Shown piece by piece: positions 14,052-43,883 of a stretch of DNA of 64,000 bases; position 1 is the stretch's first letter, and each line of letters opens with the position of its first letter. Under the pieces are notes generated by a model. That model was not told where the DNA came from. It saw only the letters and a program-made list of their open reading frames with translations, and ran no database searches. This DNA is from Candidatus Daviesbacteria bacterium. Lineage in GTDB: Bacteria > Patescibacteriota > Microgenomatia > Daviesbacterales > UBA10151. The stretch spans positions 163,637-227,636 of the forward strand of contig JACPKM010000004.1 in the NCBI GenBank assembly GCA_016187025.1, given 5' to 3'. The translations under genes and the position numbers were made by a program.

Positions 14052-15182
14052 ATGAAAAAACTGCATTATGAGTCTTCGGGTGACAACTATAAATTTAAGG
14101 ACCCTTTTAAGCTAATTGCGCTAAACTATTCACAAAAAACAAAAAATAATTTAAAAAGGTTTAAAAGATATGGACTTGAGATTGTGGATGTTTCACAAAG
14201 CCGGGGTGAATCTGCCTACCGTATCCAAATAAAATCTGGTAAGCTTTCAGATTTTCAATTGGCTCATGTGGAGGAAAGCATTGGAACAAAAAACATTATT
14301 GCAGATGAGCTGGCAACTATCTATGGAAAGAGCTTTTATTTTAATAGTGCAATAGATAATGCTGCTTGTATCTTTAACGATTTATCAACCTGTGGTGCTT
14401 TTCCTTTAACTTTTATGCTGCATGTAGCAGCTTACCCTAATGAGTGGTATGCAGATTTAGACAGGTGGAAAGGGTTAATAGAAGGTACAGCAGCAGCGTG
14501 TGATATGGCTGGTGCATCTTGGGGGGGAGGAGAGTCAGCAACTGACAGAGATATTATAATCAAAGGAAAATCACTATTATCCGGTTCTGCTACAGGTATT
14601 ATTTTTCCATCATCAAAGGCATTATCAGAAGAAAATCTTAGAGATGGAGATAGAATCATTCTGCTTAAAAGCAGTGGAGTTCATGCCAATGGAATAACTC
14701 TTTTAAGACGCGAGCTTCTAAAAAGGCTTCCAAAAGGCTATAAAACAAAGCTATCTGATGGTTCAACATATGGGGAAGCTTTAATTACGCAAACGGTAAT
14801 ATATTCAAAATTAGTAGAAGAGGCTATTTTAAATTGTGATGTGCATTATGCAGTTCATATTACTGGGCATGGATGGAGAAAAATTATGAGAGCAAAAAAA
14901 CCATTTTGTTATATGATTGAGGGGATCCCTGTGCCTCAACCAATTTACGGTTTAATCAAAAAATATTCTGACTCTTCTGAGAAAGATATGTATGATACCT
15001 ACAATATGGGAGCTGGATTTGCTTTATTTGTTCCAAGAGAAAGTGTTCAAAAAATTATGCAAATTGCCAAGAAAAACAAAATTCAGGCACTAGATGCAGG
15101 GTTTGTACAAAAAGGTCCTAAGCAAGTAGTAATAAAACCCTTGGGGTTAACCTTTACTACAGAAGATATGAGTATTAGGTAG
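14052..15182 (+). CDS. purM: Phosphoribosylformylglycinamidine cyclo-ligase (AIR synthase), divergent N-terminus
   Basis: PurM-family blocks are present: ESIGTKNI, FNDLSTCGAFPL, GGGESATDR, DGDRIILLKSSGVHANGITLLRR, HITGHGW, MYDTYNMGAGFALFVP. Confidence 0.7.
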   Translation: MKKLHYESSGDNYKFKDPFKLIALNYSQKTKNNLKRFKRYGLEIVDVSQSRGESAYRIQIKSGKLSDFQLAHVEESIGTKNIIADELATIYGKSFYFNSAIDNAACIFNDLSTCGAFPLTFMLHVAAYPNEWYADLDRWKGLIEGTAAACDMAGASWGGGESATDRDIIIKGKSLLSGSATGIIFPSSKALSEENLRDGDRIILLKSSGVHANGITLLRRELLKRLPKGYKTKLSDGSTYGEALITQTVIYSKLVEEAILNCDVHYAVHITGHGWRKIMRAKKPFCYMIEGIPVPQPIYGLIKKYSDSSEKDMYDTYNMGAGFALFVPRESVQKIMQIAKKNKIQALDAGFVQKGPKQVVIKPLGLTFTTEDMSIR

Positions 15183-15248
15183 CTAAATTTCACCTCTTTC
15201 ATTTTTTAGAGGGTTTGTATATATTGATAAGCATTCACCTAACAACTC

Positions 15249-17297
15249 ATGGGGAAGGGCACAGACAATGATTATATTAATCATGAAATACTAGGGGAAA
15301 AGTGCGGGGTTTTTGGGGTACTAGGGAAAGGCTTTGAAGCAGCTCGTTTGGTGCATCCTGGTTTATGGGCGCTTCAACATAGAGGGCAAGAGTCTTCAGG
15401 TATCGCTTCCTCTGATGGAAAAAGAATCCACTCTAAATCAGGTATAGGACTGGTAGCTCATGTTTTCCAAGAAGAGGACATAAAAAAATTGAAGGGATTT
15501 TTGGCAATTGGGCATAACCGTTATTCAACTTCAGGTTCATCAACTGAGCATTGCCAGCCTGTTGTCCGCTCAGCTGGTAAGAGGCAATCAATTGCTCTTG
15601 CTCATAATGGTAACCTACCATCAACTAAAGCCTTAGAAGACTTCTTAAAGAGTAAAAAAGTATCCATAAAAGGATTAAATGATTCAGAGATGATGACTGA
15701 GGCGATTGCATATTTTATGAGACAAGGATCTTCTTTGGTAAATGCTATTAAAAAAGCCTACCCGTTATTTACAGGGGTTTTTTCTCTTTTGGTGATGGAT
15801 AAAAGCAAAATTGTAGCCCTAAGAGATAGTAAAGGGATTAGACCATTGTGTATTGGAAAGCTAGATAAAGGTTTTGTTTTTGCCTCCGAAACATGTGCAC
15901 TAGATACAGTAGGGGCAGAATACTTACAAGAGGTGAAACCAGGGGAGATGGTGGTATTGAGCAAAAATGGTCTAAATTGTATTCAGCTGGAAAAGGGAGA
16001 AGAAAAACTTGATATATTCGAGTTTATTTATTTTGCCAGGCCTGATTCTGTTTTACTGGGAAAAAGCCTTGATCAAATAAGGCAAAATCTTGGTAAAGAG
16101 CTTGCCAAAGAATATCCTATTAAAGCAGATGTGGTGATTCCTGTACCTGATTCGGCAATACCTGCAGCACTGGGATTTTCTAAAGAATCTGGTATTCCTT
16201 TTGAGATGGCATTGATTAAAAACCGTTATATACATAGAACATTTATTCATCCAGAGGAACATATTCGAGGAAAAATCGTACAAATTAAACTAAACCCAAT
16301 GCCGCATTTAATAAAAGGCAAAGATGTAATCGTTATTGATGATTCTATAGTAAGAGGTACAACCTCAAGGCAATTAATAAACATGCTAAAGAAATCCGGA
16401 GCAAAAAAAATACATTTGATGGTAAGCTCTCCTCCGGTCAGGTTTCCGGATTTTTATGGAATCAACACTCCAGATCAAAATGAGTTAATTGCAGCAAAAA
16501 TGAGTATCGAAGAGATTAGAAAAACAATCGGAGCAGATTCTCTCAACTATCTGTCATACAAGGGATTGGTAAAAGCAACCGGATTACTAGAGAGTTCGTT
16601 TTGTATGTCGTGCCTTAATGGCACTTATCCTGTAGATATTGGCGAAAAAGCAAAAACTGTCAGATATAATGTTGCCACAAATGGGATCCCCAAAAAAAGA
16701 CTTGCTGTATTAATCTCCAATAAAGGAACAGGGACAAATTTACAAGCAATCATAGATGGTATAGAAAGTGGAAAAATAAATGGTCAAATTGCAGTGGTTA
16801 TTTCTGATACAGAGCAGTCTTTAGGATTAAATAGAGCAAAAAAATATAATATAGAAATTGCTATTAATAAGAAAAAAGAAGACTTGCTAAACTTACTAAA
16901 AAAATACAACCCTGATTTTATTTGTTTAGCCGGATGGAAACAAATAATTACATTTGATGTTATTAAACATTTTTCCAACAAAGTTTTAAATGTTCATCCT
17001 GGATTAATTCCTGAGAAAATAAACGGATTTGTTAAAAATCCTGATGGTACAAAAGCTCTTTGGAATAAGGGTAAGTTAACAGATCTAGCTATCCAAAACT
17101 TTTTAAAGGCAAAAGCAACTTATGCAGGATCAACAGTGCATTTTTTATCAGAAGAGTTTGATTTTGGATTGGTGTTAGGGAGGGCATTTGTTAAAACAGC
17201 CCCAAAAGATAATGTGGAGTCTTTGTACCAGAGGCTAAAGAGCAAAGAACATGAAATTTATGTGGAGGCTTTATCAAAGTTATGCCGGGAATGTTAG
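15249..17297 (+). CDS. Fusion protein: amidophosphoribosyltransferase (PurF) plus phosphoribosylglycinamide formyltransferase (PurN)
   Basis: N-terminus has CGVFGV...LQHRGQESSGIA (Ntn glutaminase) and a PRTase domain. The C-terminal ~210 aa have RLAVLISNKGTGTNLQAII...LNVHPGLIP (PurN). Confidence 0.85.
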   Translation: MGKGTDNDYINHEILGEKCGVFGVLGKGFEAARLVHPGLWALQHRGQESSGIASSDGKRIHSKSGIGLVAHVFQEEDIKKLKGFLAIGHNRYSTSGSSTEHCQPVVRSAGKRQSIALAHNGNLPSTKALEDFLKSKKVSIKGLNDSEMMTEAIAYFMRQGSSLVNAIKKAYPLFTGVFSLLVMDKSKIVALRDSKGIRPLCIGKLDKGFVFASETCALDTVGAEYLQEVKPGEMVVLSKNGLNCIQLEKGEEKLDIFEFIYFARPDSVLLGKSLDQIRQNLGKELAKEYPIKADVVIPVPDSAIPAALGFSKESGIPFEMALIKNRYIHRTFIHPEEHIRGKIVQIKLNPMPHLIKGKDVIVIDDSIVRGTTSRQLINMLKKSGAKKIHLMVSSPPVRFPDFYGINTPDQNELIAAKMSIEEIRKTIGADSLNYLSYKGLVKATGLLESSFCMSCLNGTYPVDIGEKAKTVRYNVATNGIPKKRLAVLISNKGTGTNLQAIIDGIESGKINGQIAVVISDTEQSLGLNRAKKYNIEIAINKKKEDLLNLLKKYNPDFICLAGWKQIITFDVIKHFSNKVLNVHPGLIPEKINGFVKNPDGTKALWNKGKLTDLAIQNFLKAKATYAGSTVHFLSEEFDFGLVLGRAFVKTAPKDNVESLYQRLKSKEHEIYVEALSKLCREC

Positions 17298-18598
17298 GAA
17301 AAACAGTTCTTATTACAGATGGTGGAGGAAGAGGTGCTGCCTTAGTTGATAAATACGGCCAAAGCAAATATGTAAAAAAAATTATTGTCGTTCCTGGAAA
17401 TGACTTAATGCAAATAAATACTAAAACCCAAGTTAAAATCTTTCCTGATTTGAAAACCACCAGCATTTCAGAAATTTTACAAATCTGCAAAAAAGAAAAA
17501 GTAGATTTAGCAGATGTCGCTCAAGATAATGCCGTAGAAGTTGGGCTGACAAATGAATTAGAAAAAATTAATATTACTGTGGTTGGTCCTACTAGAGAAG
17601 CTGGACAAATTGAATGGGATAAAGCTTGGGCAAGAGAATTTATGGAAAGAAATAATCTGCCATCTCCAGCTTTTAAAATATGCACATCTGAAAGAGAAGG
17701 AATGGATTTTTTAAAAAAACAAAAAGATTCCTCATGGTTTATAAAAGCCTCAGGTCTCGCAGAAGGTAAAGGTGCACTTCCTGCTAGAAATAATGCAGAG
17801 GGTATAGAGAAAATAAAACAGTTGAAAAGTTTTGGCAAAGCAGCGCAAACTTACTTAATTGAGGAATGGTTGGTAGGTGAAGAGTTTTCAGCATTTGCTT
17901 TGTGTGATGGGAAAGACTTTATTTTTGTTGGTTGTGCACAGGATCATAAAAGAGTAAATAATTTTGACCAAGGAGAAAATACAGGCGGTATGGGATGTGT
18001 TTCAAATCCCTTATTAATAACAGACTCTATAAAAAAACAAATTAACACAATTTTTAGAAAAACTATTAATGGACTGATTAAAGAAAAACGAGATTATAAA
18101 GGTGTTTTATACTTGGGGGGAATGGTAGTTTTAGGGAAAGTTTATATTATTGAGTTTAACGCTAGATGGGGAGATCCAGAAGCACAAGTAATTTTACCAG
18201 GTATCAAAAATGATTTATATAAAGTAAGTTTGGCAATTTCCAATGGAAAATTAAATAATCTAAAAATTAAAACAGATCATTTAGTACGGGTTATTGTAAC
18301 CGCAGCATCAAAGGGTTACCCTGTTGATTACTCAAAAGCCAAAGGTAAAAAGATTTTTGGTATTAGTGAGGCTGTTGGTATTAAAGGAGTGAGCTTATAT
18401 GGGGCTGGAATTAAAAGAGTGGGAAAAGATTATTTAGTAAACGGTGGAAGAGTTTTATATACTGTAGGCTCTGGAAAAAACGTTATTGAAGCAAGGATGA
18501 AAGCATATCAGGTAATGAGTTTGATAAGCATTGAAGAAAATAATTTACACTACAGAACAGACATTGGTTGGAGAGATGTTGAGCGAATGAGAAATTAA
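17282..18598 (+). CDS. purD: Phosphoribosylamine--glycine ligase
   Basis: KTVLITDGGGRGAAL N-terminus and an ATP-grasp body. Confidence 0.85.
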   Translation: MPGMLGKTVLITDGGGRGAALVDKYGQSKYVKKIIVVPGNDLMQINTKTQVKIFPDLKTTSISEILQICKKEKVDLADVAQDNAVEVGLTNELEKINITVVGPTREAGQIEWDKAWAREFMERNNLPSPAFKICTSEREGMDFLKKQKDSSWFIKASGLAEGKGALPARNNAEGIEKIKQLKSFGKAAQTYLIEEWLVGEEFSAFALCDGKDFIFVGCAQDHKRVNNFDQGENTGGMGCVSNPLLITDSIKKQINTIFRKTINGLIKEKRDYKGVLYLGGMVVLGKVYIIEFNARWGDPEAQVILPGIKNDLYKVSLAISNGKLNNLKIKTDHLVRVIVTAASKGYPVDYSKAKGKKIFGISEAVGIKGVSLYGAGIKRVGKDYLVNGGRVLYTVGSGKNVIEARMKAYQVMSLISIEENNLHYRTDIGWRDVERMRN

Positions 18599-18602
18599 AA
18601 TT

Positions 18603-19385
18603 ATGTATACCATAGATGGTAAGAAACTAGCATCAATAAGGGAAGAAAAACTTAAAGAGAGGATTAAAAGATTAAAGATATGTCCTAAAGTTGTCAGTAT
18701 TTTGGTGGGAAATGATCCTGCTTCGGTAATGTACACCAACATGAAACAAAAAAAGGCCAAAGATGTCGGGATCGATTTTAAGCCCTTAAGACTGCCTGCA
18801 CAAACCACACCCAAAAGAGTAGTGACAGAAATCGAAAGGTTGAATAAGGATGAAGATATTGATGGAATTATGATTCAACTTCCCTTACCGGAAAAATATT
18901 TTTCTAAAAACCTAACCCCAAAAATTATTCAAAAAATAGATCCCCAAAAAGATATTGACGGTTTAACGGGAAAGGGGAAATTTATTCAAGCAACTGTGAA
19001 GGCTGTTGTAACAATTTTATCTTCAGAAAAAGAGCTTGGTAAAAATAAAAGGACTGTAGTTGTGGGAGGAGTAAGGGGAATGGTAGGAGTAGGGTTGGTT
19101 AATGAATTAAAGCGTTTGGGGGAGGAAGTTGAAGGGATAAGCAAATCTGATCCTCAATTAAAAAATAAAACCAAGAAGGCAGATATATTAATTTCTGCAA
19201 CAGGAGTAAAGAATATCATAACAGCTGAGTTAGTTAAAAAAGGAACTGTAGTGATTGATGTTTCGTATGACGTTGATTTTAAAGATGTTTCAAAATTTGC
19301 TAGTAAGATAACTCCAGTTCCAGGTGGTGTAGGACCGATGACAGTAGTTTGCTTGATGGAGAATATCTGGGAGAAGTATTTATGA
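18603..19385 (+). CDS. folD: Bifunctional methylene-THF dehydrogenase / methenyl-THF cyclohydrolase
   Basis: SILVGNDPASVMYTNMKQKKAKDVGI...IMIQLPLP. Confidence 0.85.
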   Translation: MYTIDGKKLASIREEKLKERIKRLKICPKVVSILVGNDPASVMYTNMKQKKAKDVGIDFKPLRLPAQTTPKRVVTEIERLNKDEDIDGIMIQLPLPEKYFSKNLTPKIIQKIDPQKDIDGLTGKGKFIQATVKAVVTILSSEKELGKNKRTVVVGGVRGMVGVGLVNELKRLGEEVEGISKSDPQLKNKTKKADILISATGVKNIITAELVKKGTVVIDVSYDVDFKDVSKFASKITPVPGGVGPMTVVCLMENIWEKYL

Positions 19386-22300
19386 TAGTAAGAGTTGAGG
19401 TTACATCAAAAATCATCGATTCCCGAGCCGAAGTTTTGAAAAATAAAATAAAAGGATTGGGTTTTAGAAATAGGATTAGAGACGTTAAGATTGCCGATGT
19501 CTATACACTGGAAAAGACCTTTACTAAAAAGCAATTAGAGAAAATAACACAAGCCGTTACAAATCCTGTGTCACAACAGTCTTATACTAAATTTGACAGT
19601 AAATCAAATAATATAGAAAAATTTCTACCAGTAGAAAAAGGTTTTACTCTGGCAATAGAGGTAGGGTTTTTACCAGGCGTGACTGATAATGTGGGGGCAA
19701 CCACCAAAGAGATAATAGAGGATTTGTTAAAACTTAAGTTTAAACGCACAGAAGGAGTTTATTCTTCACAGTTAATTTTTATACTAGGTAATCTTTCTAA
19801 GATGGATGCTGTAAATATAGCTGAGAGCTTAGTAAACCCCCTAATCCAAAGAATTCATGTTAAAAGCTTTGATGAATTTATGACAAGCCATGGGATGGAC
19901 TTAGTAGTGCCAAAAGTAAAAATAGATAAAAAGCCCGCTGTTTTAGAAGTTGACTTGGATGTAGATGATGATGAATTAATCATGATAGGAAAGCAGGGAA
20001 TAATGGACCCAAATGGAATAAGAAGAGGTCCTCTGGCCCTAGATTTATCTTATATGAGGGCTATCCAAAGGTATTTTCAAAAAATAGGAAGAAAACCAAC
20101 TGATGTTGAAATTGAATCGATTGCTCAAACTTGGTCTGAACATTGTAAACACACAGTCTTTAGTGACAGGATTGATGATATTAAAGAAGGGTTATTTAAA
20201 GCTTATATAAGGAAAGCAACTGAAAAGATCCGTAAACAAAAATCGGCCAAAGGCCGATGGTCCTCCGGACGAGATTATTGTGTTTCTGTATTTGGTGATA
20301 ATTCAGGAGGAATAGAATTTGACGAGAATTATTTAGTTACTCATAAGGTTGAAACCCACAATACCCCCTCTGCTTTAGATCCTTTTGGCGGATCTATCAC
20401 AGGAATAGTTGGAGTAAACAGAGATACAATTGGTTTTGGGTTAGGAGCAAAGCCGATAGCCAATGTTTACGGTTTTTGCCTGGCTGATCCAAGAGATTCT
20501 GAATTGCTGTATAAGGGGCCCCATTACACACAAAAGATGCTTTCCCCCAGAAGAATCATGGAGGGAGTAATTGCCGGAGTTAACGCTGGCGGAAATCAGT
20601 CTGGAATTCCTACACCACACGGGTTTTTATATTTTGATCATCGCTATAAGGGTAAGCCGTTGGTTTTTGTAGGTACTATTGGTTTAATACCCAAATCAGA
20701 TAATAGCAGGATACTATACGAGAAGAAAGCTCAAGTTGGTGATTATATTGTTATGATTGGAGGAAGGGTTGGGATCGATGGGGTTCATGGAGCGACTTTT
20801 TCATCTGAAGCCTTGGATAGTGGTTCTCCGGTAACAGCGGTGCAGATTGGCGATCCTATTACACAAAAGAAGTTTTCCGATGCAATAGTAAAGGAAGCGC
20901 GGGATTTAAACTTATACAACAGTATTACAGATAATGGGGCAGGAGGCTTATCTTGTTCGGTTGCCGAAATGGCCAAGGAGTCAAATGGCTGCAAGGTTTA
21001 CTTAGACAAAGTCCCGTTAAAGTATCCCAATCTTTCCCCTTGGCAGACTTGGATTTCAGAATCTCAAGAAAGAATGACATTATCTGTTCCAAAAAATAAA
21101 TGGAAGAAATGCTTGAATTTAATGAGAAGAAGAGGGATAGAGGCAACGGTAATTGGAAAGTTTAATGATTCAGGAAAGTGTCAAGTATATTATAAGAGTA
21201 AAATTGTCATGGATATAGATTTAGAGTTTTTGCATGGTGGTCTACCAAAAAGACCAATGTTAACCTCTTTTACCAAACCTGCACATATAGAACCTGAAAT
21301 TCCTCAACTTAGCAATCTTTCAGAAATACTGGAAGAGATGTTGCAAAGGTTGAATTTAACCAGCTTTGAGTTTGTATCAACTCAATATGATCACGAAGTG
21401 CAGTCAAACTCTGTGATCAAGCCTCTACAGGGTAGAGGAAGAGTTAATGGTGATGCTGTAATTATTAAGCCGCTTATTACCTCAAATAAAGGTTTGGTAA
21501 TTACAAGTGGATTGTATCCTACTTATAGTGATATCGATACTTACTATATGGCAGCAGCATCTATTGATACTGCCATCAGAAATGCAGTTGTAGCTGGGGC
21601 AAATCCTAACTCTTTGGCAATTTTAGATAATTTTTGCTGGGCCTCAAGTAATGAGTTGGAGATGTTAGGACAGTTAAAGAAAGCGGCGCAGGCTTGTTAT
21701 GATTTTGCCACTGCTTATAAAACACCATTTATTTCCGGTAAGGATAGTATGTTTAATGATTTTAAAGGATTTGATGAACATGGTAATAGAATAAAAGTTT
21801 CTATACCACCAACCCTGTTAATTTCAGCCATAGGAACAATTGATGATATCACCAAATCAGTATCTATTGATCTGAAGTTACCGGGCGATTTAGTTTACAT
21901 TTTAGGAGATACAAAAGAGGAGTTGGGTGGATCAGAATATTACGCATATTGGGGGGACAAGTTTAAGAAAAGATATATTGGTAATACAGTACCTATCACT
22001 ACAGCTGCTAAAAATCTGAAACTCTACCACAAATATTTTATATGTGTCGGGAAAGAACTAATCTCCTCTGCAATTGGTATAGGAAGGGGTGGATTAGGAG
22101 TTGCTTTAGCTAAAAAGTCAATTTCCGGTTTAGTTGGTTTAGATATTAACCTGAAAGAATTAGCAGATAATAACAAAAGAGATGACTTTGCACTTTTTTC
22201 AGAGTCACAAGGAAGAATTATTGTCTCTATTGCCCCGCAAAATAAGGAAAAGTTTGAAAGACTGATGAAAGGATGTAGTCATACACTTATTGGTGTTGTA

Positions 22301-22408
22301 AGAGAGGATAATAAATTTACAGTGAAAGGAAAGAAGGGAAATATGATTATAAACACTGATGCAATGCATTTATTAAAAAATTATAAGAAAACCTTTAAAA
22401 ATTATTAA
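19382..22408 (+). CDS. FGAM synthase subunit PurL with fused N-terminal PurS-like domain(s)
   Basis: The ATG at 19382 overlaps the folD stop (ATGA). The first ~80 aa are PurS-like (VRVEV...GF..IRDVKIADVYTLE). The PurL core starts near WSEHCKHTVF. AIRS-type domains are duplicated. Confidence 0.8.
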   Translation: MIVRVEVTSKIIDSRAEVLKNKIKGLGFRNRIRDVKIADVYTLEKTFTKKQLEKITQAVTNPVSQQSYTKFDSKSNNIEKFLPVEKGFTLAIEVGFLPGVTDNVGATTKEIIEDLLKLKFKRTEGVYSSQLIFILGNLSKMDAVNIAESLVNPLIQRIHVKSFDEFMTSHGMDLVVPKVKIDKKPAVLEVDLDVDDDELIMIGKQGIMDPNGIRRGPLALDLSYMRAIQRYFQKIGRKPTDVEIESIAQTWSEHCKHTVFSDRIDDIKEGLFKAYIRKATEKIRKQKSAKGRWSSGRDYCVSVFGDNSGGIEFDENYLVTHKVETHNTPSALDPFGGSITGIVGVNRDTIGFGLGAKPIANVYGFCLADPRDSELLYKGPHYTQKMLSPRRIMEGVIAGVNAGGNQSGIPTPHGFLYFDHRYKGKPLVFVGTIGLIPKSDNSRILYEKKAQVGDYIVMIGGRVGIDGVHGATFSSEALDSGSPVTAVQIGDPITQKKFSDAIVKEARDLNLYNSITDNGAGGLSCSVAEMAKESNGCKVYLDKVPLKYPNLSPWQTWISESQERMTLSVPKNKWKKCLNLMRRRGIEATVIGKFNDSGKCQVYYKSKIVMDIDLEFLHGGLPKRPMLTSFTKPAHIEPEIPQLSNLSEILEEMLQRLNLTSFEFVSTQYDHEVQSNSVIKPLQGRGRVNGDAVIIKPLITSNKGLVITSGLYPTYSDIDTYYMAAASIDTAIRNAVVAGANPNSLAILDNFCWASSNELEMLGQLKKAAQACYDFATAYKTPFISGKDSMFNDFKGFDEHGNRIKVSIPPTLLISAIGTIDDITKSVSIDLKLPGDLVYILGDTKEELGGSEYYAYWGDKFKKRYIGNTVPITTAAKNLKLYHKYFICVGKELISSAIGIGRGGLGVALAKKSISGLVGLDINLKELADNNKRDDFALFSESQGRIIVSIAPQNKEKFERLMKGCSHTLIGVVREDNKFTVKGKKGNMIINTDAMHLLKNYKKTFKNY

Positions 22409-22414
22409 ATCTTT

Positions 22415-23278
22415 ATGAAAAAACCTAATATATTAGTATTTTCTGGATACGGATTAAACTGTGAAGAGGAAACAAAATTTGCCTTTGAAAAAGCAGGAGG
22501 TGCTGCAGACATTGTCCACATTAACGATTTAATAGAAGGACTTGTAAGTATTGGTAATTATCAAATTTTGGCTTTTCCTGGAGGTTTTGCATACGGTGAT
22601 GACACAGGTTCTGGAAATGCGTATGCCAATAAGCTAAAAAATCACTTGTGGAAAGATATAGTTAAATTTATTAGTCAAGGAGGGTTAATAATAGGAATTT
22701 GTAATGGATTTCAGATATTGGTTAATTTAGGCCTTCTCCCAGCATTAAACAAAAAATACGGTGAAAGACAGGTAGCCTTACTTCATAACAGCTCAGCAAG
22801 ATATATAGATAGATGGGTTGATTTAAAAGTAGAAAATAAGTCTCCCTGGCTTGTTGGGATTAATAAACTTTCTGCACCGATATCACATGGTGAAGGAAGG
22901 CTTTATGTATCAGAGGAAGTATTAAAACAACTGAAAGAAAAAAGTCTAATAGCCCTAAGGTATTTCAAAGGAGAGGTATGCAATTACCAGAATTTAGAAT
23001 CTAATCCGAATGGATCAATTGATAATATAGCAGGGCTTAGTGATGAGACTGGTAGAATACTGGGATTAATGCCTCATCCTGACCGAGCACTATTTTTTAC
23101 ACAGCTGCCAAATTGGCCATTACTGAAGGAAAAACTGAAAAGAGAACAAAAGCCACTGTTCCCTGAGGGACAAGGTTTACAAATCTTTAAAAATGGTGTT
23201 AACTATTTTGCAAATATTAAAGAAGGCTTAAGCAAAAACGAGATCTTCTCTTCTTTGCCCGTTACCAATAGCCATTAA
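22415..23278 (+). CDS. purQ: FGAM synthase glutaminase subunit
   Basis: NILVFSGYGLNCEEE...GICNGFQIL...PHPDRA class-I GATase triad. Confidence 0.85.
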   Translation: MKKPNILVFSGYGLNCEEETKFAFEKAGGAADIVHINDLIEGLVSIGNYQILAFPGGFAYGDDTGSGNAYANKLKNHLWKDIVKFISQGGLIIGICNGFQILVNLGLLPALNKKYGERQVALLHNSSARYIDRWVDLKVENKSPWLVGINKLSAPISHGEGRLYVSEEVLKQLKEKSLIALRYFKGEVCNYQNLESNPNGSIDNIAGLSDETGRILGLMPHPDRALFFTQLPNWPLLKEKLKREQKPLFPEGQGLQIFKNGVNYFANIKEGLSKNEIFSSLPVTNSH

Positions 23279-24520
23279 TCGGGCATCAGGTATAGTTGCA
23301 ACAATTCCTAGAACATATTTTCTAGCCTTTTCTGGCAGATCATTTAAGTCTGTTATACCCGCTAAATCCTCGTTCCATCCTGGGTAGCAATCTTCGTTTC
23401 CATAAGCAGCCTGACATCGTTCAAAGTCCCTAAGGTTTGAGGGAATATGGTGTATTTCTTTACCATCTAAAATATAACTATTACAAACCATTAAATCTCC
23501 CATACAGGATAGGTTATCCAGTCTTGTAATTACTATATCAGTAAAGCCATTTACATATTGTGATTGTCCAGCTGCTACTCCATCAAACCATCCAAGCCTT
23601 CTGGGTCTTCCAGAAACAACTCCAAACTCATGGGCGCTTTTTCTAAGTCTATCTGCACCTTCATCAAATCGTTCAGTTGGCATTGGTCCACCACCTACTC
23701 TTGTTTGGTAAGCTTTGAAAACTCCAATTGCCTGAGTTAGCCACCTTGCACCAATTCCTGCACCTGCGAGCAATCCATTTATTGTAGTATTGGATGAAGT
23801 TACCATGGGATATGTTCCATCATCTACACTAAGCAGTGTTCCTTGAGCCCCTTCAATCAAGACCCGTCCATTTGAACCTGTAATGTGCCGATAAAGGAAT
23901 TCGGATGTTTCCATCACTAGGGGCGTCAAGACATGTTGCGCCTCTCCTAAAAGATTCTCATAATATCCTGGATCAAATTGGGGAGAATTGGCAAGGTCAG
24001 GATGGTAACCCCTCTTATTTTTTAAAACACGGGCAATTTTACCAAGGCATTCTTCAGGATCAGCTAAATCTTCTGCCCTAATACCTACACGATTAGCTTT
24101 ATCTGCGTAAGCGGGTCCTATTCCTCTTTTGGTTGTTCCGATAGCTTGTGCTCCTTTGGAGTTTTCTTCATGACCGTCTTCTAACTGATGATATTCAAAA
24201 ACTAGGTGGGCTTTGGGGCTTATTCTTAAATTACTGGTAGAAATACCCCTTTCATGGAGTGCAGCCATCTCCCTAATTAAACCTGCTGCATTTACGACAG
24301 TACCTTGTCCTAAAATATTTATAGTTTTGGGGTTAAAGATTCCGGCAGGGATTAAATTGAGGGCAAACATACCTTTTCCATTAACTACAGTATGCCCGGC
24401 GTTGTCGCCTCCCTGGGCTCTGACTACAACTGTTGCACCTTGTGCCAGTTGGTCAACAACCTTACCCTTACCTTCGTCTCCCCATTGACCTCCAGCAACT
24501 GCGATTACTTCTGCGCTCAT
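23228..24520 (-). CDS. purA: Adenylosuccinate synthetase
   Basis: GGQWGDEGKGKVVD and AGHTVV motifs. It converges on purQ with a 51-nt 3' overlap. Confidence 0.9.
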   Translation of the reverse strand: MSAEVIAVAGGQWGDEGKGKVVDQLAQGATVVVRAQGGDNAGHTVVNGKGMFALNLIPAGIFNPKTINILGQGTVVNAAGLIREMAALHERGISTSNLRISPKAHLVFEYHQLEDGHEENSKGAQAIGTTKRGIGPAYADKANRVGIRAEDLADPEECLGKIARVLKNKRGYHPDLANSPQFDPGYYENLLGEAQHVLTPLVMETSEFLYRHITGSNGRVLIEGAQGTLLSVDDGTYPMVTSSNTTINGLLAGAGIGARWLTQAIGVFKAYQTRVGGGPMPTERFDEGADRLRKSAHEFGVVSGRPRRLGWFDGVAAGQSQYVNGFTDIVITRLDNLSCMGDLMVCNSYILDGKEIHHIPSNLRDFERCQAAYGNEDCYPGWNEDLAGITDLNDLPEKARKYVLGIVATIPDARLMAIGNGQRREDLVFA

Positions 24521-24618
24521 AGTCTAGATAGAATAAAGAGTTTAGCAAGACAAATCTAAAAAAACAAGATTTAACTTAATCTCTAGACAAAATTCTAACA
24601 ATAAGTTTAAAATAGGCC

Positions 24619-25635
24619 ATGAAATTCTCCAGCACTTACATAGTTACTCTTGGTTCACACTCTGCTTTACAAATTTTAAAAGGAGCAAAGGATGAAGGTT
24701 TTAAAACAGCAGTGGTTTGTACTCCTAAACAAACAACTCTCTATAGAAACTATGATAAATTTATAGACGAGATAATCCAGATAGATTCTTGGGCTTCTTT
24801 TCCTCAAATGGAAAAAAGACTAATAAAGCAAAATTCCATCATTGTTCCACACGGGTCATTTGTAGCGTATTTGGGAATGGAAAGAAACAAACAAATGAGA
24901 GTACCGTATTTTGGAAACAAACTTGTTTTGGATTGGGAATCAAATAGAAAAATGCAAAGAGAATGGATGATAGCAGCAGATGTCAAGGTTCCTCACAAGT
25001 TTAAAAAGGGAGATAAAATTGATCGTCCTGTGATAGTTAAGTCTCATGGAGCCCAAGGTGGAAAAGGATATTTTGTTGCCAAAAATCAAAAAGAACTGGA
25101 TGAAAAATTGAAAGTTTTTAGTGAAGAAAAATTTATAGTACAAGAGTATGTTATCGGTGTGCCAGTGTATATACATTTTTTTTATTCTCCACTAACAGAA
25201 AAATTAGAAGTGATGAGTGTTGATAAGAGATATGAGACAAATGTTGATTCATTGGGCCGAATTCCAGCCAGGAACCAAAAAGGATTAAAAATAGAGCCTA
25301 CCTTTGAGGTGGTAGCAAATATTCCAATGGCCATAAGGGAATCAATGTTGGCAGAAGCAATGGCAATGGGTGATAGAGTAATAAATGTTTCTAAAAAACT
25401 GGTTCCACCAAAAGGATTATTTGGTCCTTTTTGTCTGGAAACAATTATCACCTCAACTGATGAAATTTATGTAATGGAAATTTCAGCAAGAATTGTTGCC
25501 GGAACAAACTGTTTTATTGACGGTTCCCCTTATACATATTTGCTTTATGATGAACCAATGAGCACCGGAAGACGGATTGCCCGGGAAATAAAGTTGGCAA
25601 TAAAGAAGAAAAGATTAAAGGAAGTATTAGACTAA
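24619..25635 (+). CDS. purP: Archaeal-type FAICAR synthetase (formate-dependent AICAR formylating ATP-grasp), paralog 1
   Basis: N-terminus TLGSHSALQILKGAKDEGF and overall length match PurP. Confidence 0.65.
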   Translation: MKFSSTYIVTLGSHSALQILKGAKDEGFKTAVVCTPKQTTLYRNYDKFIDEIIQIDSWASFPQMEKRLIKQNSIIVPHGSFVAYLGMERNKQMRVPYFGNKLVLDWESNRKMQREWMIAADVKVPHKFKKGDKIDRPVIVKSHGAQGGKGYFVAKNQKELDEKLKVFSEEKFIVQEYVIGVPVYIHFFYSPLTEKLEVMSVDKRYETNVDSLGRIPARNQKGLKIEPTFEVVANIPMAIRESMLAEAMAMGDRVINVSKKLVPPKGLFGPFCLETIITSTDEIYVMEISARIVAGTNCFIDGSPYTYLLYDEPMSTGRRIAREIKLAIKKKRLKEVLD

Positions 25636-25638
25636 ATC

Positions 25639-26733
25639 ATGAATAATCAATCACTTACCATTGCAGTACTAGGGTCTCATTCCGCTCTGGATGTTTGCCG
25701 GGGAGCAAAAGATTTAGGATTTAACACCTTAGTTATTTGCGAGAAAGGAAAAGAAAAAACTTATCAGAAGTTTTATAGATCCCAAGATGAGTTAGGTTGT
25801 GTTGACGGAGTGCTAGTTTTAGAAAAATTTGCAGATATATTAAAACCAGCTGTCCAGGAAGAACTAAGAAAAAGAAATTGCATATTTATTCCTCATAGAT
25901 CATTTGAAGTCTATTTAAACTTTGATTACAAAGCAATTGAGGAAAAATTTAAAGTGCCAATTTTTGGAAATAAATTCTTACTAAAAATTGAAGAGCGGGG
26001 AGTGAAACCTAATCAATACGACCTTTTAGAAAAAGCCAAAATAAGGATACCCAAGCAATTTAGCGATCCTAAAAAAATAGATAGATTGTGTATTATCAAA
26101 GTCCTAGAAAAAGAAAGAGGTTTTGAAAGAGCCTTCTTTTTGTGTGACTCTTATAAAGAGTATCAAAAGCAAGTAGAAGAAAAATTAGATAAAGGAATTT
26201 TTACTAAAGAACAATTAGATAAATGTGTAATTGAGGAATTTATGATCGGTGTACAAGTAAACTTAAATTATTTTTTCTCTCCAGTAGATAAAAGATTAGA
26301 GCTTCTAGGGACAGATACCAGAAGGCAAACCAATATTGAAGGATTAATTAAAACACCTGCTCCTTATCAGCAATCAATCATGGAAAAAGTAAATATAAAA
26401 TACGAGGAAGCAGGACATATTGCTGTGACAGTCTTGGAATCAATGCTTGAGCAAATTTTTGAGTTAGGGGAAAGATTTGTTAGAGTTTCTCAAAAGTTAA
26501 TACCACCTGGAGTGATTGGCCCTTTTGCCCTGCAAGCAGTAATTGTTCCAGGCCCTCCCAAAAAAGATATTATTGTTTTTGATGTTTCGCCAAGAATGCC
26601 GGGTAGTCCCGGAACTTTTGCTACACCATATAGTGGGTATTTATTTAGGCAAAATATCTCTGTTGGAAAAAGAGTTGCAATGGAAATTAAGAATGCTTTA
26701 GAAAAGAATAATTTAGAAAAAATTACAACATGA
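25639..26733 (+). CDS. PurP-family ATP-grasp protein, paralog 2
   Basis: AVLGSHSALDVCRGAKDLGF is a paralog of the upstream gene. Confidence 0.6.
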   Translation: MNNQSLTIAVLGSHSALDVCRGAKDLGFNTLVICEKGKEKTYQKFYRSQDELGCVDGVLVLEKFADILKPAVQEELRKRNCIFIPHRSFEVYLNFDYKAIEEKFKVPIFGNKFLLKIEERGVKPNQYDLLEKAKIRIPKQFSDPKKIDRLCIIKVLEKERGFERAFFLCDSYKEYQKQVEEKLDKGIFTKEQLDKCVIEEFMIGVQVNLNYFFSPVDKRLELLGTDTRRQTNIEGLIKTPAPYQQSIMEKVNIKYEEAGHIAVTVLESMLEQIFELGERFVRVSQKLIPPGVIGPFALQAVIVPGPPKKDIIVFDVSPRMPGSPGTFATPYSGYLFRQNISVGKRVAMEIKNALEKNNLEKITT

Positions 26734-28121
26734 ATATGAAAAACCTTTCAACCTACCAATCTCCCTTTTCTTGGCGTTATGGGTCAGATAGCATGCGACA
26801 GATTTGGTCTGAGGAAAATAAATACAGAATATGGAGAAAGGTTTGGGTAACTCTTGCTAAAGCTCAATACACACAAGGCCTGCTGACGAAAAAAGAATTT
26901 GATGATTTGGAAAAACACCAAGACGATATCAATATAAAAAGAATTTTAGAAATAGAACAGAGCACACAGCATGATGTTGTGGCTGCAATTAAAGAGTTTG
27001 CAGAGAAGGCTAAAGTGGGTGGAGGAAAAATACATTTGGGTGCTACCAGTATGGACATTAACGATAACGCGGATGTTCTAAGAGTTCAGGAAGCGTTAAA
27101 GTTAATCGAGGGTCAGCTAAGAAGCCTTGTTAAAAAATTCTTAGAAAAGGGGGGAAAATATTCAGATCTTGCCTGTATGGGTTACACTCATCTTCAACCT
27201 GCTGAACCCACAACTTTAGGATACAGACTTTGTTTTTATATCCAGGATCTACTAACTGATCTAGAGTTTCTAAAGTTTGTTAAAAATAATTTAAAAGGGA
27301 AAGGGATAAAAGGGGCTGTGGGTACATCTGCAAGTTATGTCAAACTTTTAAATAAAATAGGTGTAGAAAAGATGGAAAATGAGGTAATGGATATATTGGG
27401 GATTAGCGCTGTTGAAATATCAAACCAGACGGCTCCCAGAAAAATAGAATATTTGATAGGAAGTCTTCTCGCATCAATCTCACAGACTTTATATAAGTTT
27501 GCGTTTGATCTAAGAATAATGCAATCTCCCGGATTTGGTGAGTGGCAAGAACCTTTTGGAAAAACGCAGGTCGGGTCATCCGCTATGCCTTTTAAGAAAA
27601 ATCCCTGGAAAGCAGAGCAAATTTGCTCGTTATCCAGAGTTGTTGTAAGTTTATCACGGGTTCTTTGGGATAATGCAGCAAACATGGGTTTAGAAAGAAC
27701 TTTGGATGATTCAGCTAACAGAAGAGTAGTTATCCCAGAAATATTTCTAACAACAGATGAGATATTGAATATTGCCAATAATATTTTGGATGGATTAATC
27801 GTAAATGAAAAAAAAGTTACAGAAAACTTAAACAAGTATTGGCCATTTTCTGTAACTGAGGCAATTTTAATAGAGGTCGTTAAAAAAGGAGCAGACAGGC
27901 AAAAGATGCATGAGGTTTTAAAGGGTATTGCCATGAGCGCATGGCAGGAAATATCGAATGGGGAAGAGAATCCTATGAAAGATCTTTTGGAAAATGATCC
28001 GGATCTAAGTAAATATTTATCATCAGAAGAGTTAGATCAGCTATTTGATGTAAAATCACACTTGGGAAATGCCCCGGAAAAAACCAAAAGATTTTGCAAA
28101 AGAGTCAAAAAATATGTTTAG
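26730..28121 (+). CDS. purB: Adenylosuccinate lyase
   Basis: Fumarate-lyase signature GATSMDINDNADVLR...SSAMPFKKNP. Confidence 0.85.
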   Translation: MNMKNLSTYQSPFSWRYGSDSMRQIWSEENKYRIWRKVWVTLAKAQYTQGLLTKKEFDDLEKHQDDINIKRILEIEQSTQHDVVAAIKEFAEKAKVGGGKIHLGATSMDINDNADVLRVQEALKLIEGQLRSLVKKFLEKGGKYSDLACMGYTHLQPAEPTTLGYRLCFYIQDLLTDLEFLKFVKNNLKGKGIKGAVGTSASYVKLLNKIGVEKMENEVMDILGISAVEISNQTAPRKIEYLIGSLLASISQTLYKFAFDLRIMQSPGFGEWQEPFGKTQVGSSAMPFKKNPWKAEQICSLSRVVVSLSRVLWDNAANMGLERTLDDSANRRVVIPEIFLTTDEILNIANNILDGLIVNEKKVTENLNKYWPFSVTEAILIEVVKKGADRQKMHEVLKGIAMSAWQEISNGEENPMKDLLENDPDLSKYLSSEELDQLFDVKSHLGNAPEKTKRFCKRVKKYV

Positions 28122-28473
28122 ATTATGGGGGAAAGTTAAAAGAGGTCAAAGCAGGGGAAAGAAGTTGGGGTTTCCAACTGCAAACATTAATTTACATAAT
28201 AAAATGGCCCAGGGGGTGTATGTGTCTAAGATAAAGATTAAATCCCAGTTTTTTACTGCCCTAACATTTATCGGCAATGCTACTACATTTAATGAGGAAA
28301 ATTATTTAGCAGAAAGTTATATTTTGAATTTTGATAAAGATATATACGGCGAGTTTATAAGCGTTTATTTATTGAAAAAGATTAGGGGTAATATTAAGTT
28401 TAAAACGGCAAATGATTTGATTAAACAGATGAAAAAAGATGAAAAGCAGGCATTAGAATACTTTAAACAATAA
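28114..28473 (+). CDS. Monofunctional riboflavin kinase (RibF kinase domain only)
   Basis: GRG..LGFPTANI-type motif (RGQSRGKKLGFPTANI). I favour the internal Met at 28114, overlapping the purB end, over the listed start at 28069. Confidence 0.6.
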   Translation: MFRLWGKVKRGQSRGKKLGFPTANINLHNKMAQGVYVSKIKIKSQFFTALTFIGNATTFNEENYLAESYILNFDKDIYGEFISVYLLKKIRGNIKFKTANDLIKQMKKDEKQALEYFKQ

Positions 28474-28476
28474 GTT

Positions 28477-29070
28477 ATGTTTAGCGGAATCATAGAGAAA
28501 AAAACTAAAGCAATAGAGCTGAATAAAAACAAAAACAGCATAATATTAACTTTTGCTAGGCCTAAAAAATGGAGGCTTTCAGAAGGGGAGAGTATATGTA
28601 TAGATGGTATTTGCTCAACAGTGAGTAAGATCACCTCAGATACTTTTTCTGTTTATTATATGAGTGAGACACTGAGTAAAACTCATTTAATATTTGTTGA
28701 CGGTAGTCATGAATTTAATTTGGAACAGAGCTTAAGGTTAACTAGTTTAGTGGGCGGGCATCTTGTTTCCGGTCATATAGATACTGTAGGTAAGGTTGTG
28801 AATATTAGTAAAAAGGAAGACTCATCTGTTGTAAAGATTGAAATTCCTCCAGAGTTTTCAAGATACATTATTTATAAAGGATCTATCTGTGTAAATGGTG
28901 TTAGTTTAACTGTAGTTAATATAGACAAAAACGTATTTACGGTTTCACTGATTCCTTATACATTAGCTAAAACTAATTTAGGATCTCTTAAAGTAGAGGA
29001 TTTAGTGAATATTGAAGTTGATTTACTAGCAAAATACCTGGAGAAATTAACTAAAACTGAGAAAAGATGA
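28477..29070 (+). CDS. ribE: Riboflavin synthase alpha chain
   Basis: MFSGIIE...GESICIDGICSTV and the repeated lumazine-binding half GSICVNGVSLTV. Confidence 0.8.
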   Translation: MFSGIIEKKTKAIELNKNKNSIILTFARPKKWRLSEGESICIDGICSTVSKITSDTFSVYYMSETLSKTHLIFVDGSHEFNLEQSLRLTSLVGGHLVSGHIDTVGKVVNISKKEDSSVVKIEIPPEFSRYIIYKGSICVNGVSLTVVNIDKNVFTVSLIPYTLAKTNLGSLKVEDLVNIEVDLLAKYLEKLTKTEKR

Positions 29071-30194
29071 AAAACAAAATTGGAATTGTAGGTGGTGGGC
29101 AACTGGGAAAAATGTTAACCCTTGAGGCTAAAAGATTAGGTTTTACAGTAGTGATCCTTGATCCAACTAGAAAAAGTCCTGCAGCTCAGGTATCAGATTA
29201 TCAACTAGTGGCAGATTTTAAAAATGAAAAAGCTATTAAACGGTTGGCTGAGCTTACAGATTACATAACTTTTGAAATAGAGCTTGCTAATGCAGATATT
29301 TTAAATGAAATTTCTAAACTAGGAGCAAAGGTTAATCCATCTGCAAAAACGTTAAATATTATTAAAGATAGGCTGAAACAAAAAGAGTTTCTTGTAAAAA
29401 ATAATATTCCAGTAGCGCCTTTTAGAAATGTCAACAACAGAGAAAATATTTTAGAATCAGCCAAAAAACTGGGATATCCGATTTTATTAAAGGCCCGGCT
29501 GGATGCATATGATGGTAGAGGAAATGTATTAATAAAAGACGAAAAAGAAATTGATGATGCTTTAGAAAAGTTGGTGGATAGAGAACTTTTCTTAGAAGGG
29601 TTTGTTTCATTTAAGAAAGAGCTTGCTGTGATGATTGCAAGAAGCTCAAAAGGTGAAATAGCTGTGTATCCAGTAGTGGAAACAGTTCACAAAAATAGTA
29701 TTTGTCATACGGTTTTTGCACCAGCTCCTGTTGATACTGCTATACAAAAAAAAGCAAAAAATCTAGCAATAAAGGTTATAAAGGTTTTAAAGGGTGCAGG
29801 GGTCTTTGGAATTGAAATGTTTTTGACTAAAGATAATAAAGTATTGGTAAATGAAATAGCTCCAAGAGTCCATAATTCAGGTCATTACTCAATTGAGGCT
29901 TGTTTAACTTCTCAATTTGAACAACATATACGGGCAATAACAGGACTACCTTTAGGAAGAACTGACATGGTTGTTTCTGCTGCTGTAATGATAAATATTT
30001 TAGGTGAAAGACATGGGCAATCAGAATTAAAGGGTTTAGAAAAAGCCTTAAAGCTGCCTAATGTTTCTGTACATATATATGGCAAGACTGAGACAAGGAT
30101 AGAAAGAAAAATGGGTCATATTACTGCTATTGATTCCTCTTTAAAGAAAGCGTATAACAAGGCATTAATAGCAAGAAAACTGATTTCAATTTAA
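29067..30194 (+). CDS. purK: N5-carboxyaminoimidazole ribonucleotide synthase
   Basis: [22 protein letters not shown] and an ATP-grasp body. Confidence 0.85.
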
Positions 30195-30718
30195 TGAAGA
30201 GCGCGAATCCTTTAGTTGGCATTATTATGGGATCTGATTCAGATTTGTCAGTTATGTCTGAGGCAGCCAAGATACTGGATGAGTTTAATATTCCTTATGA
30301 GCTGATGATAGTATCTGCACACCGTACTCCAGATAGGATGTATACATTCGCAAAGCAAGCACAAAGCAGAGGAGTGAAGGTAATCATTGCAGGAGCAGGT
30401 GGCTCTGCACATCTGCCTGGAATGACAGCTTCGCTTACTTCACTTCCTGTAATTGGTGTTCCTATTCAAACAAAAACACTTTCTGGCATAGATTCGCTTT
30501 ATTCTATTGTACAAATGCCTCCTGGAGTTCCTGTTGCTACTGTTGGAATAAATGCTGCTTTAAATGCCGGGCTTTTGTCAGTAAAAATTTTGGCAATATA
30601 TGATGAAAAGCTATTAAAAAAGCTTGAAGAATACTCAAAATCCTCAGAAAGCTCGGTTGTTGCAAAATCCTCTAAACTAGAAAAAATTGGTTTTGAAAAA
30701 TATTTAAAAGCAAAATAA
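30194..30718 (+). CDS. purE: N5-CAIR mutase
   Basis: [14 protein letters not shown]...SAHRTPDRM...[10 protein letters not shown]. Confidence 0.9.
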
Positions 30719-31701
30719 TGGTTCAAGCAAAAATAATTCTTTCTGCTTTGCCGAAAGTATTAAAAGAAGTTGATATTCCAGGTTTGGGAAAAAAGTATCA
30801 AGGTAAAGTAAGAGATTATTATATTCTCAACTCAGAACGAATAATTATTACTACAGACCGGCAATCTGCCTTTGATGTGATATTGGGATGCATTCCATTT
30901 AAAGGTGCAGTATTAAACCAGCTTGCTGCTTTCTGGTTTAATAAAACAAAAAAAATTATCCCAAATCATTTAATTTCCGTTCCGGATCCGAATGTTTCTC
31001 TTGTTAAAAGCTGCACTGGAATTCCGATAGAAATGATAGTTAGGGGATATATTTCTGGTGTGACAAATACCTCAATTTGGGGCTCATACCAGAAAGGAGA
31101 GAGGATGATTTACGGGGTTAAGTTTCCCGATGGCTTAAGAAAGAATCAAAAGTTAAGAGACCCTGTTATTACTCCGACAACTCATGGGGGTGGTAAAAAT
31201 GGACATGACGAAAGATTAACCAGAAAAGAAATTTTAGAAAGGAAGCTTATCTCACCTAAACTCTACAAGCAAATGGAGGAAACAAGCCTCGAGCTTTTTA
31301 AGTTTGGGTCAAAACTGTGTGCAAAGCAGGGACTTATTTTAGTTGATACGAAATACGAGTTTGGACTGGATGAAAACAGCAACCTGATGTTGATGGATGA
31401 AATGCACACTCCAGATTCCTCAAGGTTTTGGATAGAGAAAACTTACAAGGATAGATTTGCAAAAGGTATAGAACCGGAAAACTTTGATAAAGAGTTTTTA
31501 CGGCTTTGGTATGCCCAAAGGGGATATAAAGGAGATGGCAATCCTCCCAAAATGAGCAAAGACTTAATTGTGGCCTTGGCTGAAAGATATATAGCAGTTT
31601 ATGCAAAGTTAACAGATAAAAAGTTTAAACTTTTTAAATATCCTATTGAAAAAAGAATAGAAAAAAACCTTCGTCCCATTATTAAGACCTATAGTAAATG
31701 A
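30718..31701 (+). CDS. purC: SAICAR synthetase (long form)
   Basis: GKVRDYY...TDRQSAFD and the downstream PurC core; 327 aa. Confidence 0.85.
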   Translation: MVQAKIILSALPKVLKEVDIPGLGKKYQGKVRDYYILNSERIIITTDRQSAFDVILGCIPFKGAVLNQLAAFWFNKTKKIIPNHLISVPDPNVSLVKSCTGIPIEMIVRGYISGVTNTSIWGSYQKGERMIYGVKFPDGLRKNQKLRDPVITPTTHGGGKNGHDERLTRKEILERKLISPKLYKQMEETSLELFKFGSKLCAKQGLILVDTKYEFGLDENSNLMLMDEMHTPDSSRFWIEKTYKDRFAKGIEPENFDKEFLRLWYAQRGYKGDGNPPKMSKDLIVALAERYIAVYAKLTDKKFKLFKYPIEKRIEKNLRPIIKTYSK

Positions 31702-36825: not shown

Positions 36826-36827
36826 CT

Positions 36828-38191: not shown

Positions 38192-38199
38192 AACAATGT

Positions 38200-40398: not shown

Positions 40399-40448
40399 CC
40401 ATATGGATGGTATCACCTGCCAGTACAAATCTGCTAATATTTTAGTTA

Positions 40449-43854: not shown

Positions 43855-43883
43855 GACTTATGAATTATATCATCTAGTGGGTT

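Follow-up and report, generated by a model that had tools for sequence, protein, structure and literature searches.

Adjacent group II and group III PurP genes in the purine operon of a Candidatus Daviesbacteria bacterium that apparently lost the usual neighbour purH

PurP is treated in the literature as an archaeal signature. A 2019 survey of complete genomes found it in archaea only and in 0 of 1,266 bacterial genomes (Cruz et al. 2019, PMC6486802). Two adjacent purP genes, PurP-A and PurP-B, are described here from the purine operon of a small Candidatus Daviesbacteria bacterium from groundwater, represented by a metagenome-assembled genome (MAG) of the Microgenomates (Patescibacteria, or candidate phyla radiation, CPR). 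The 64-kb stretch of DNA that was analysed is referred to as the window. Archaeal PurP proteins are classed as cluster Ia or group I (MJ0136), cluster Ib or group II (PF1517) and cluster II or group III (PF0421) (Brown et al. 2011, PMC3261824; Cruz et al. 2019, PMC6486802). Cluster I is marked by Asn258 and a (K/R)GG(K/R)G P-loop, and cluster II by His258 and a glycine-poor loop that is two residues longer (PMC3261824). The group I protein MJ0136 of Methanocaldococcus jannaschii (structure 2r7k) is the sole PurP with demonstrated formate- and ATP-dependent FAICAR (5-formamidoimidazole-4-carboxamide ribonucleotide) synthetase activity (EC 6.3.4.23). It is the product of one gene and is paired with PurO.

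Groups II and III co-occur in 61 of the 61 archaeal operational taxonomic units (OTUs) having either one (PMC6486802). In Pyrococcus furiosus they are represented by PF1517 (structures 2r84-2r87) and PF0421, each of which was inactive alone (PMC3261824, PMC6486802). In Crenarchaeota and Korarchaeum the two genes lie side by side and adjoin purB (PMC3261824), as in the purP-purP-purB order of Sulfolobales, Pyrobaculum and Korarchaeum. Sulfolobus extracts incorporated formate into inosine monophosphate (IMP) from 5-aminoimidazole-4-carboxamide ribonucleotide (AICAR) (PMC3261824), and a heterohexamer of groups II and III was speculated by Cruz et al. (PMC6486802). Many hosts of the archaeal pair have no known IMP cyclohydrolase (PMC3261824, PMC6486802). 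The same pathway position is held by PurH, the bifunctional AICAR transformylase/IMP cyclohydrolase of steps 9 and 10, which differs from PurP in its unrelated fold and in using 10-formyl-tetrahydrofolate (10-formyl-THF) rather than formate and ATP. A PurP pair beside PurH is analogous to PurT beside PurN in Escherichia coli, where an ATP-grasp formate ligase runs parallel to a folate transformylase. PurT differs in being a single protein acting at step 3 instead of step 9, and redundancy has been demonstrated for PurT/PurN only.

PurP-A and PurP-B (Table 1) correspond to two of the NCBI proteins matching the locus (MBI2601132-MBI2601134), and PurP-B starts 3 nt past the PurP-A stop. Their N-termini read ...IVTLGSHSALQILKGAKDEGF and ...IAVLGSHSALDVCRGAKDLGF, respectively. 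The PurP family is defined by Pfam DUF1246 plus DUF1297 and by COG1759. Both domains were found in this order at 142.5 and 227.2 bits in PurP-A and at 143.4 and 207.5 bits in PurP-B (gathering cutoffs 25 and 23.8), with E-values of 1e-42 to 1e-67. PurP-A aligned over its full length to the PF1517 structure (2r84; E 1e-102, 347 bits), to which its identity is moderate only, and PurP-B aligned over its full length to the MJ0136 structure (2r7k; E 2e-69). The alignments ran from residues 2-7 through the C-terminus. A sequence-only reading of this DNA had proposed two PurP genes with these N-termini and coordinates, and the Pfam domains, solved structures and residues confirm that both open reading frames (ORFs) are genuine, full-length members of the family.

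Both genes are under strong purifying selection, with dN/dS of 0.04-0.13 (about 0.05 for PurP-A), similar to purB, at dS near saturation. GC and GC3 of the two genes match those of the neighbouring genes, so the acquisition was not recent, and recent horizontal acquisition of the pair was rejected.

For classification, the alignment combined the window proteins and two PDB anchors with 68 full-length representatives of the family and with both copies (A and B) from 29 related loci, and a bootstrapped neighbor-joining (NJ) tree was built. Residues are numbered as in MJ0136, and their roles are taken from Brown et al. 2011 (PMC3261824). PurP-A has Asn258 and the P-loop GAQGGKG, with Gln where K/R is usual. 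PurP-B has His258 and the loop EKERGFERAFF instead of a P-loop. This loop lies in the region KVLEKERGFERAFFL, where the two-residue insertion corresponds to PurP-B positions 162-163. Throughout the alignment all A copies had Asn258 and GAxGGxG, and all B copies His258 and E(K/R)xx(F/Y)ERAFF. The formyl contacts His27 and Arg314 and the phosphate contacts Ser94 and Ser266 are present in both window proteins, as in MJ0136, with which they also share the fold and the domain pair; PurP-A additionally shares Asn258 and the P-loop. Among the 29 loci H, S, S and R were retained at 27, 94, 266 and 314, apart from the two Ser positions in a few A copies (T/G/A) and in one B copy (A).

In the tree the A copies, MJ0136 and PF1517 formed an Asn258 clade with 100% bootstrap. 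PF1517 was nearest to the A copies, and PurP-A was placed as its sister. All B copies fell among the His258 sequences, of which one deep representative belonged to Methanomassiliicoccales/Thermoplasmatales. The same A/B split was seen in Micrarchaeota and in non-CPR bacteria. The diagnostic residues and the tree position thus assign PurP-A to group II (cluster Ib) and PurP-B to group III (cluster II). These are the same two subfamilies as in the P. furiosus and purP-purP-purB systems, and as in those systems the genes are adjacent, coupled to purB and always found together (PMC3261824, PMC6486802). The window proteins differ from MJ0136 in belonging to groups II and III and in having no PurO in the window.

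PurP-B and the P-loop clade share His27, Lys156, Glu200, Arg228, Glu265 and Arg314 and are separated by nine fixed differences: G93R, Q199E, Y208N, E230Q, V255E, N258H, E297Q, E310D and A317G. Conservation of each position is 92% or higher in both groups. G93R adjoins the phosphate-binding Ser94, and N258H is at the residue contacting the AICAR carboxamide. E297Q is not inactivating, as MJ0136 itself has Gln297. The active site of PurP-B is therefore remodelled yet tightly constrained, which together with the purifying selection indicates that PurP-B is not a decaying copy.

Relatives of PurP-A were collected by a scan of one genome per GTDB species, which returned 485 stretches, and the best 80 of these were analysed. 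By record title the best 80 comprised Daviesbacteria, Curtissbacteria, Levybacteria, Shapirobacteria and other Microgenomates, a tight clade of non-CPR MAGs mostly labelled Vulcanimicrobiota, and two Micrarchaeota. In 67 loci the sequence ran on for 4.5 kb or more past PurP-A, and all 67 had PurP-B. The two genes were at most 3 nt apart or had one pur gene between them, and in nearly all loci PurP-B was followed by purB, with or without an intervening purH. The A and B subtrees of the NJ tree were parallel, and their common coarse structure suggests that the group II and III pair moves as a unit. The PurP family is small as a whole: at 50% identity it accounts for 610 clusters among 1.84 billion representatives. 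Which way the genes were transferred between archaea and bacteria is only weakly indicated.

Several record titles did not fit the operon type. MAGs titled 'uncultured Gammaproteobacteria bacterium isolate binchicken_...' (loci L005, L007, L009, L011, L012, L015 and others) carry Daviesbacteria-type operons with proteins 75-83% identical, and operons of the Curtissbacteria and Levybacteria types are found in L060 ('Saccharimonadales') and L079 ('Limnocylindrales'). These titles look like placeholders or the result of mis-binning.

The searchable literature yielded no account of PurP in bacteria, whether CPR or other. What is already known is the name given to PurP-A by the NCBI pipeline, 'formate--phosphoribosylaminoimidazolecarboxamide ligase', while PurP-B is called a 'DUF1297 domain-containing protein' only. 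What is new is the predicted bacterial set of group II and III members of a known PurP kind.

The usual neighbour of the pair is purH. Among 41 Daviesbacteria-type operons 38 contained a canonical bifunctional purH directly after PurP-B, between PurP-B and purB, packed with spacers of 1-4 nt or overlaps; the exceptions were the window, L007 and L005. Between PurP-B and purB the otherwise identical operon of the closest relative (PurP-A 87% identical) holds a HAD phosphatase of the Cof type and a bifunctional PurH of full length, which matches the NF002049 equivalog at 524 bits (cutoff 402). The main locus set was ascertained through PurP-A. Three loci were added from the PurH side, two of them on contigs of ~1 Mb, and all three had the order purA(-)-PurP-A-PurP-B-[HAD]-PurH-purB. 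Elsewhere purH was found between PurP-A and PurP-B (five loci) and ~8-9 kb upstream (L067 and L078). Curtissbacteria-type operons and the non-CPR clade had no PurH within ±10 kb. A Cof-type HAD-IIB phosphatase beside purH or PurP-B was seen in L001 (12123-12848) and also in L011, L028, L035, L046, L067, L078 and L092. It could be a pathway-linked nucleotide phosphatase, and its gene is absent from the window.

The window contained no purH, purJ or purO domain. Pfam and NCBIfam scans of its 61 ORFs of at least 110 aa gave no MGS, AICARFT_IMPCHas or IMP_cyclohyd domain, and neither PurP-A, PurP-B nor any other of these ORFs matched the IMP cyclohydrolase families (PF02142/PF01808; PF07826). With a Daviesbacteria PurH as the query, tblastn returned no match in the window at a threshold as loose as E<=10. 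In sister operons a full-length purH, in some with the HAD gene, occupies ~1.5-2.4 kb exactly at the point where PurP-B and purB overlap in the window. This direct junction was 100% identical in five independently assembled sequencing runs and held no remnants of PurH or HAD. The purH-less PurP-B/purB junction of L007 was likewise clean. In the nearest species representative, L005, an apparent 804-aa PurP-B-PurB fusion arose from a scaffold gap of 100 N at the junction (L005 12036-12135) and is an artefact, so this locus is uninformative and was dropped as evidence for purH loss. A gap ORF of this type could mislead automated annotation into calling a fusion protein.

From these junctions the window and L007 are read as clean purH-deletion variants, and the window as a derived variant. 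In the PurP-A tree the window was sister to a purH-bearing genome and L007 branched elsewhere, for which at least two independent deletions of purH would be the simplest reading. The sequence-only reading had held that the pair replaces purH in a cluster devoid of any purH-like gene, as a folate-independent substitute. The absence of purH from the cluster stands. Replacement as a general property does not, given purH in 38 of the 41 Daviesbacteria-type operons and the pair in all three loci found through PurH. The rationale of folate independence also fails, since the operon itself contains folD and, fused to purF, purN, and absence of folate is therefore not the reason. The locus departs from the archaeal group II and III systems in these respects: its host is a mesophilic CPR bacterium, its operon holds the folate-dependent purN together with folD, and its sister species carry purH in the same operon.

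PurB makes AICAR, the substrate of PurP. With purH deleted in the window lineage, the PurP pair is the only candidate in the operon for the step from AICAR to FAICAR. The favoured reading, to which a probability of about 60% is given, is that the group II and III pair is a conserved purine-operon module acting as a two-subunit formate- and ATP-dependent AICAR formyltransferase. PurP-A retains every feature of the characterised enzyme and would probably activate formate with ATP via formyl phosphate, as MJ0136 does, and formylate AICAR released by the co-translated PurB. PurP-B would probably be its obligatory partner, such as a subunit of a hetero-hexamer. An obligatory partner would explain the strict co-occurrence of the two groups and the inactivity of each P. 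furiosus protein alone, and translational coupling of the pair fits this role. In purH-bearing relatives the pair would probably run alongside the 10-formyl-THF route as a second, formate-dependent one, in analogy to PurT beside PurN. The analysis shows the family and subgroup of both proteins, the conservation of the pair, its coexistence with purH in relatives, the deletion in the window and purifying selection; that the pair is enzymatically active, that it forms a heteromer and what closes the IMP ring in this host are inferences.

Several points weigh against a two-subunit formyltransferase. FAICAR synthetase activity has been shown for group I (MJ0136) only and never for group II or III. 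The cutoffs of the NCBIfam equivalogs NF009778-NF009783 were not reached, the best scores being 398 bits for PurP-A (cutoff 580) and 292 bits for PurP-B (cutoff 556). By these scores the two proteins are clear homologs, yet are placed outside the curated archaeal equivalogs of NCBIfam. The pair coexists with an apparently intact purH in streamlined genomes of ~1 Mb, which argues against simple redundancy and would allow the pair a different or additional function. No enzyme of the window operon is assigned to the step after FAICAR, and FAICAR does not cyclise spontaneously but needs an enzyme (PMC6797443). The search for purH covered the 64-kb window of the genome. Lastly, the PurP-A and PurP-B phylogenies are discordant within Daviesbacteria. 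PurP-A of the window is sister to that of L001 (87% identity, 94% bootstrap), whereas PurP-B is 61% identical to that of L001 (L001 11017-12099), which groups with L003 and L067 at 100% bootstrap and differs in its loop, KAQQKNVSFERGFFF. The discordance is awkward for a tightly co-evolving heteromer. Two PurP-B allele types seem to exist in Daviesbacteria and to have recombined.

The alternative that survives best, though still doubtful, is that purH (or purJ or purO) moved outside the window and that the pair is a formate-using transformylase back-up, like PurT beside PurN. The position of purH is fluid, as the upstream copies in L067 and L078 and the five loci with purH between PurP-A and PurP-B show. 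With purN and folD in the operon 10-formyl-THF is made, and the window is 64 kb of a genome of roughly 1 Mb. Set against this are four weak negatives. No PurH was found within the window, and none of the 120 best relatives of a Daviesbacteria PurH was placed on a contig with the length of the window's contig. Of the ten NCBI-sourced PurH matches checked (five with accession numbers), none was in the MBI260xxxx block of this genome. The closest PurH in the same sequencing runs (P0290) belonged to another species, with flanks ~78% identical to the window.

Less likely still is a self-sufficient module in which PurP-A makes FAICAR and PurP-B, with His258, Arg93, Glu255 and no glycine-rich ATP lid, closes the ring to IMP. 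Such a pair would explain how a host genome could lose purH altogether, and it refines the question raised by the sequence-only reading, whether one paralog provides the IMP cyclohydrolase step. The deletion of purH with retention of the pair in the window and L007 fits this, as do ~20 further bacterial loci (Curtissbacteria-type and the non-CPR clade) whose large pur operons hold the pair and show no PurH for 10 kb on either side of it; one of these, fully scanned, was also without PurO. In PurP-B the carboxamide-contacting Asn has become an invariant His and a new invariant Arg stands beside the phosphate-binding Ser, and the cyclisation step needs no ATP. Among archaea 37 OTUs have groups II and III and no known cyclohydrolase (PMC6486802), FAICAR cyclisation requires an enzyme, and the IMP cyclohydrolase of Crenarchaeota having only groups II and III is still unidentified (PMC6797443). 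Against it, most Daviesbacteria retain a full purH beside the pair, and many archaea combine groups II and III with PurJ, PurO or PurH, which would be redundant under this model (PMC6486802). PurP-B also keeps the ATP-grasp core (Lys156, Glu200, Asp310, Arg314), needless for a cyclohydrolase, and purH may lie elsewhere in the purH-less genomes. It is equally unlikely that groups II and III together are a complete AICAR-to-IMP converter and that group III is the missing IMP cyclohydrolase of Crenarchaeota and some Thermococcales. If true, the independent natural purH deletions in the window and L007 and the purH-less Curtissbacteria- and Vulcanimicrobiota-type operons would be the genomic footprint of self-sufficiency.

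A further, rather improbable explanation is that PurP-B is a non-catalytic pseudoenzyme, serving as a regulatory or scaffolding subunit with PurP-A as the sole catalyst. The glycine-rich P-loop has been lost in PurP-B, PF0421 was inactive (PMC3261824) and NCBI gives PurP-B no functional name. The substrate contacts of PurP-B are, however, invariant in bacteria and archaea (His27, Ser94, His258, Ser266 and Arg314, with the new Arg93 and Glu255), its dN/dS is as low as that of PurP-A, and the group II protein PF1517 was likewise inactive alone. Recent tandem duplication of one acquired purP followed by divergence, as the sequence-only reading had supposed, is hardly credible: PurP-A and PurP-B are adjacent, in the same orientation and with a common N-terminal motif, but they are 33% identical, each groups with a different archaeal clade at 100% bootstrap, and the same A/B split recurs in Micrarchaeota, non-CPR bacteria and all described archaeal lineages (PMC3261824, PMC6486802), so that the published diagnostic residues and the NJ tree refute it in favour of anciently diverged group II and III paralogs.

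Table 1. Features of the purine operon and its surroundings, in window positions.
Feature	Positions	Strand	Length	Remarks
purM-like, purF-purN fusion, purD, folD, purS-purL fusion, purQ	14052..23278	+		Upstream operon half
purM-like	14052-15182	+		144 bits against TIGR00878 (cutoff 236); weak AIRS domains; divergent PurM, kept in relatives
purF-purN fusion	15249-17297	+	682 aa	Amidophosphoribosyltransferase and folate-dependent glycinamide ribonucleotide (GAR) transformylase; kept in L001 and L002
folD	18603-19385	+		Between purD and purL
PurL	19349-22408	+	1019 aa	N-terminal extension of ~230 aa with PurS domain (PF02700, 25.9 bits, cutoff 22.2)
purA (adenylosuccinate synthase)	23228..24520	-		NF002223, 459 bits (cutoff 402); divergent from PurP-A
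Sigma-70-like best match TAGACA-18-TAAAAT	24584..24613	+		Consensus match only, no evidence of function
PurP-A	24619..25635	+	338 aa	MBI2601133.1
PurP-B	25639..26733	+	364 aa	MBI2601134.1
PurP-B stop/purB start overlap	26730..26733	+	4 nt	ATGA
purB (adenylosuccinate lyase)	26730..28121	+		TIGR00928, 408 bits (cutoff 326)
Monofunctional riboflavin kinase, ribE, purK, purE, purC	28069..31701	+		Downstream operon half; ruvC afterwards
Riboflavin kinase and riboflavin synthase ribE	28069-29070	+		Between purB and purK; kinase of 134 aa matches RibF C-terminal half only
ORF of 948 aa, two cohesin-domain proteins, tyrosine recombinase (XerC/D-like)	33889-39147			ORF of 948 aa without Pfam/NCBIfam match
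ORFs with no or marginal family matches	10527-11615, 11634-12377, 39256-40985, 43312-44276, 59951-61123		130-380 aa	Typical CPR hypothetical proteins

The PurP genes sit in a complete purine operon, and the remaining features of the locus are collected in Table 1. By its overlap with PurP-B, purB is predicted to be translationally coupled to it. The -10 element of the promoter-like match ends 5 nt before the PurP-A ATG, within a 98-bp divergent spacer common to purA(-). The PurP-A start has no obvious Shine-Dalgarno sequence (window 24584-24619), and its transcript may be leaderless. An Rfam scan gave no matches over the window at gathering thresholds and none at E<=1 upstream of PurP-A, and riboswitch control (for example by a ZTP riboswitch) was ruled out by this absence. 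With folD inside the purine operon, the operon itself would supply 10-formyl-THF. The PurS domain in the N-terminal extension of PurL identifies a purS-purL fusion. In L007 a phosphoribosyl pyrophosphate (PRPP) synthetase takes the place of riboflavin kinase and ribE between purB and purK.

A purA(-) gene lies at the equivalent position in Daviesbacteria-type operons. The window purA is 34-44% identical to the purA at the same position of other Daviesbacteria operons, whereas the flanking genes are 68-87% identical, and its GC content is 0.425 compared to 0.33-0.37 for the neighbours. The low identity and raised GC suggest a xenologous replacement of purA. The convergent genes purA and purQ share 51 bp at their 3' ends.

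The function of groups II and III and the IMP cyclohydrolase of organisms with these groups only have been open questions since 2008-2011. The pair described here reveals no new kind of system and makes this old question more tractable. As a conserved operon module it occurs in hundreds of bacterial species, most of them Microgenomates, and its usual place beside a canonical purH speaks against simple redundancy of the two. For tests of the function of PurP groups II and III, close relatives that have or lack purH at an identical operon position are natural material. Being mesophilic and operon-encoded, these proteins should lend themselves far more readily to co-expression, or to complementation of E. 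coli purH mutants, than the hyperthermophile proteins, whose results were negative.

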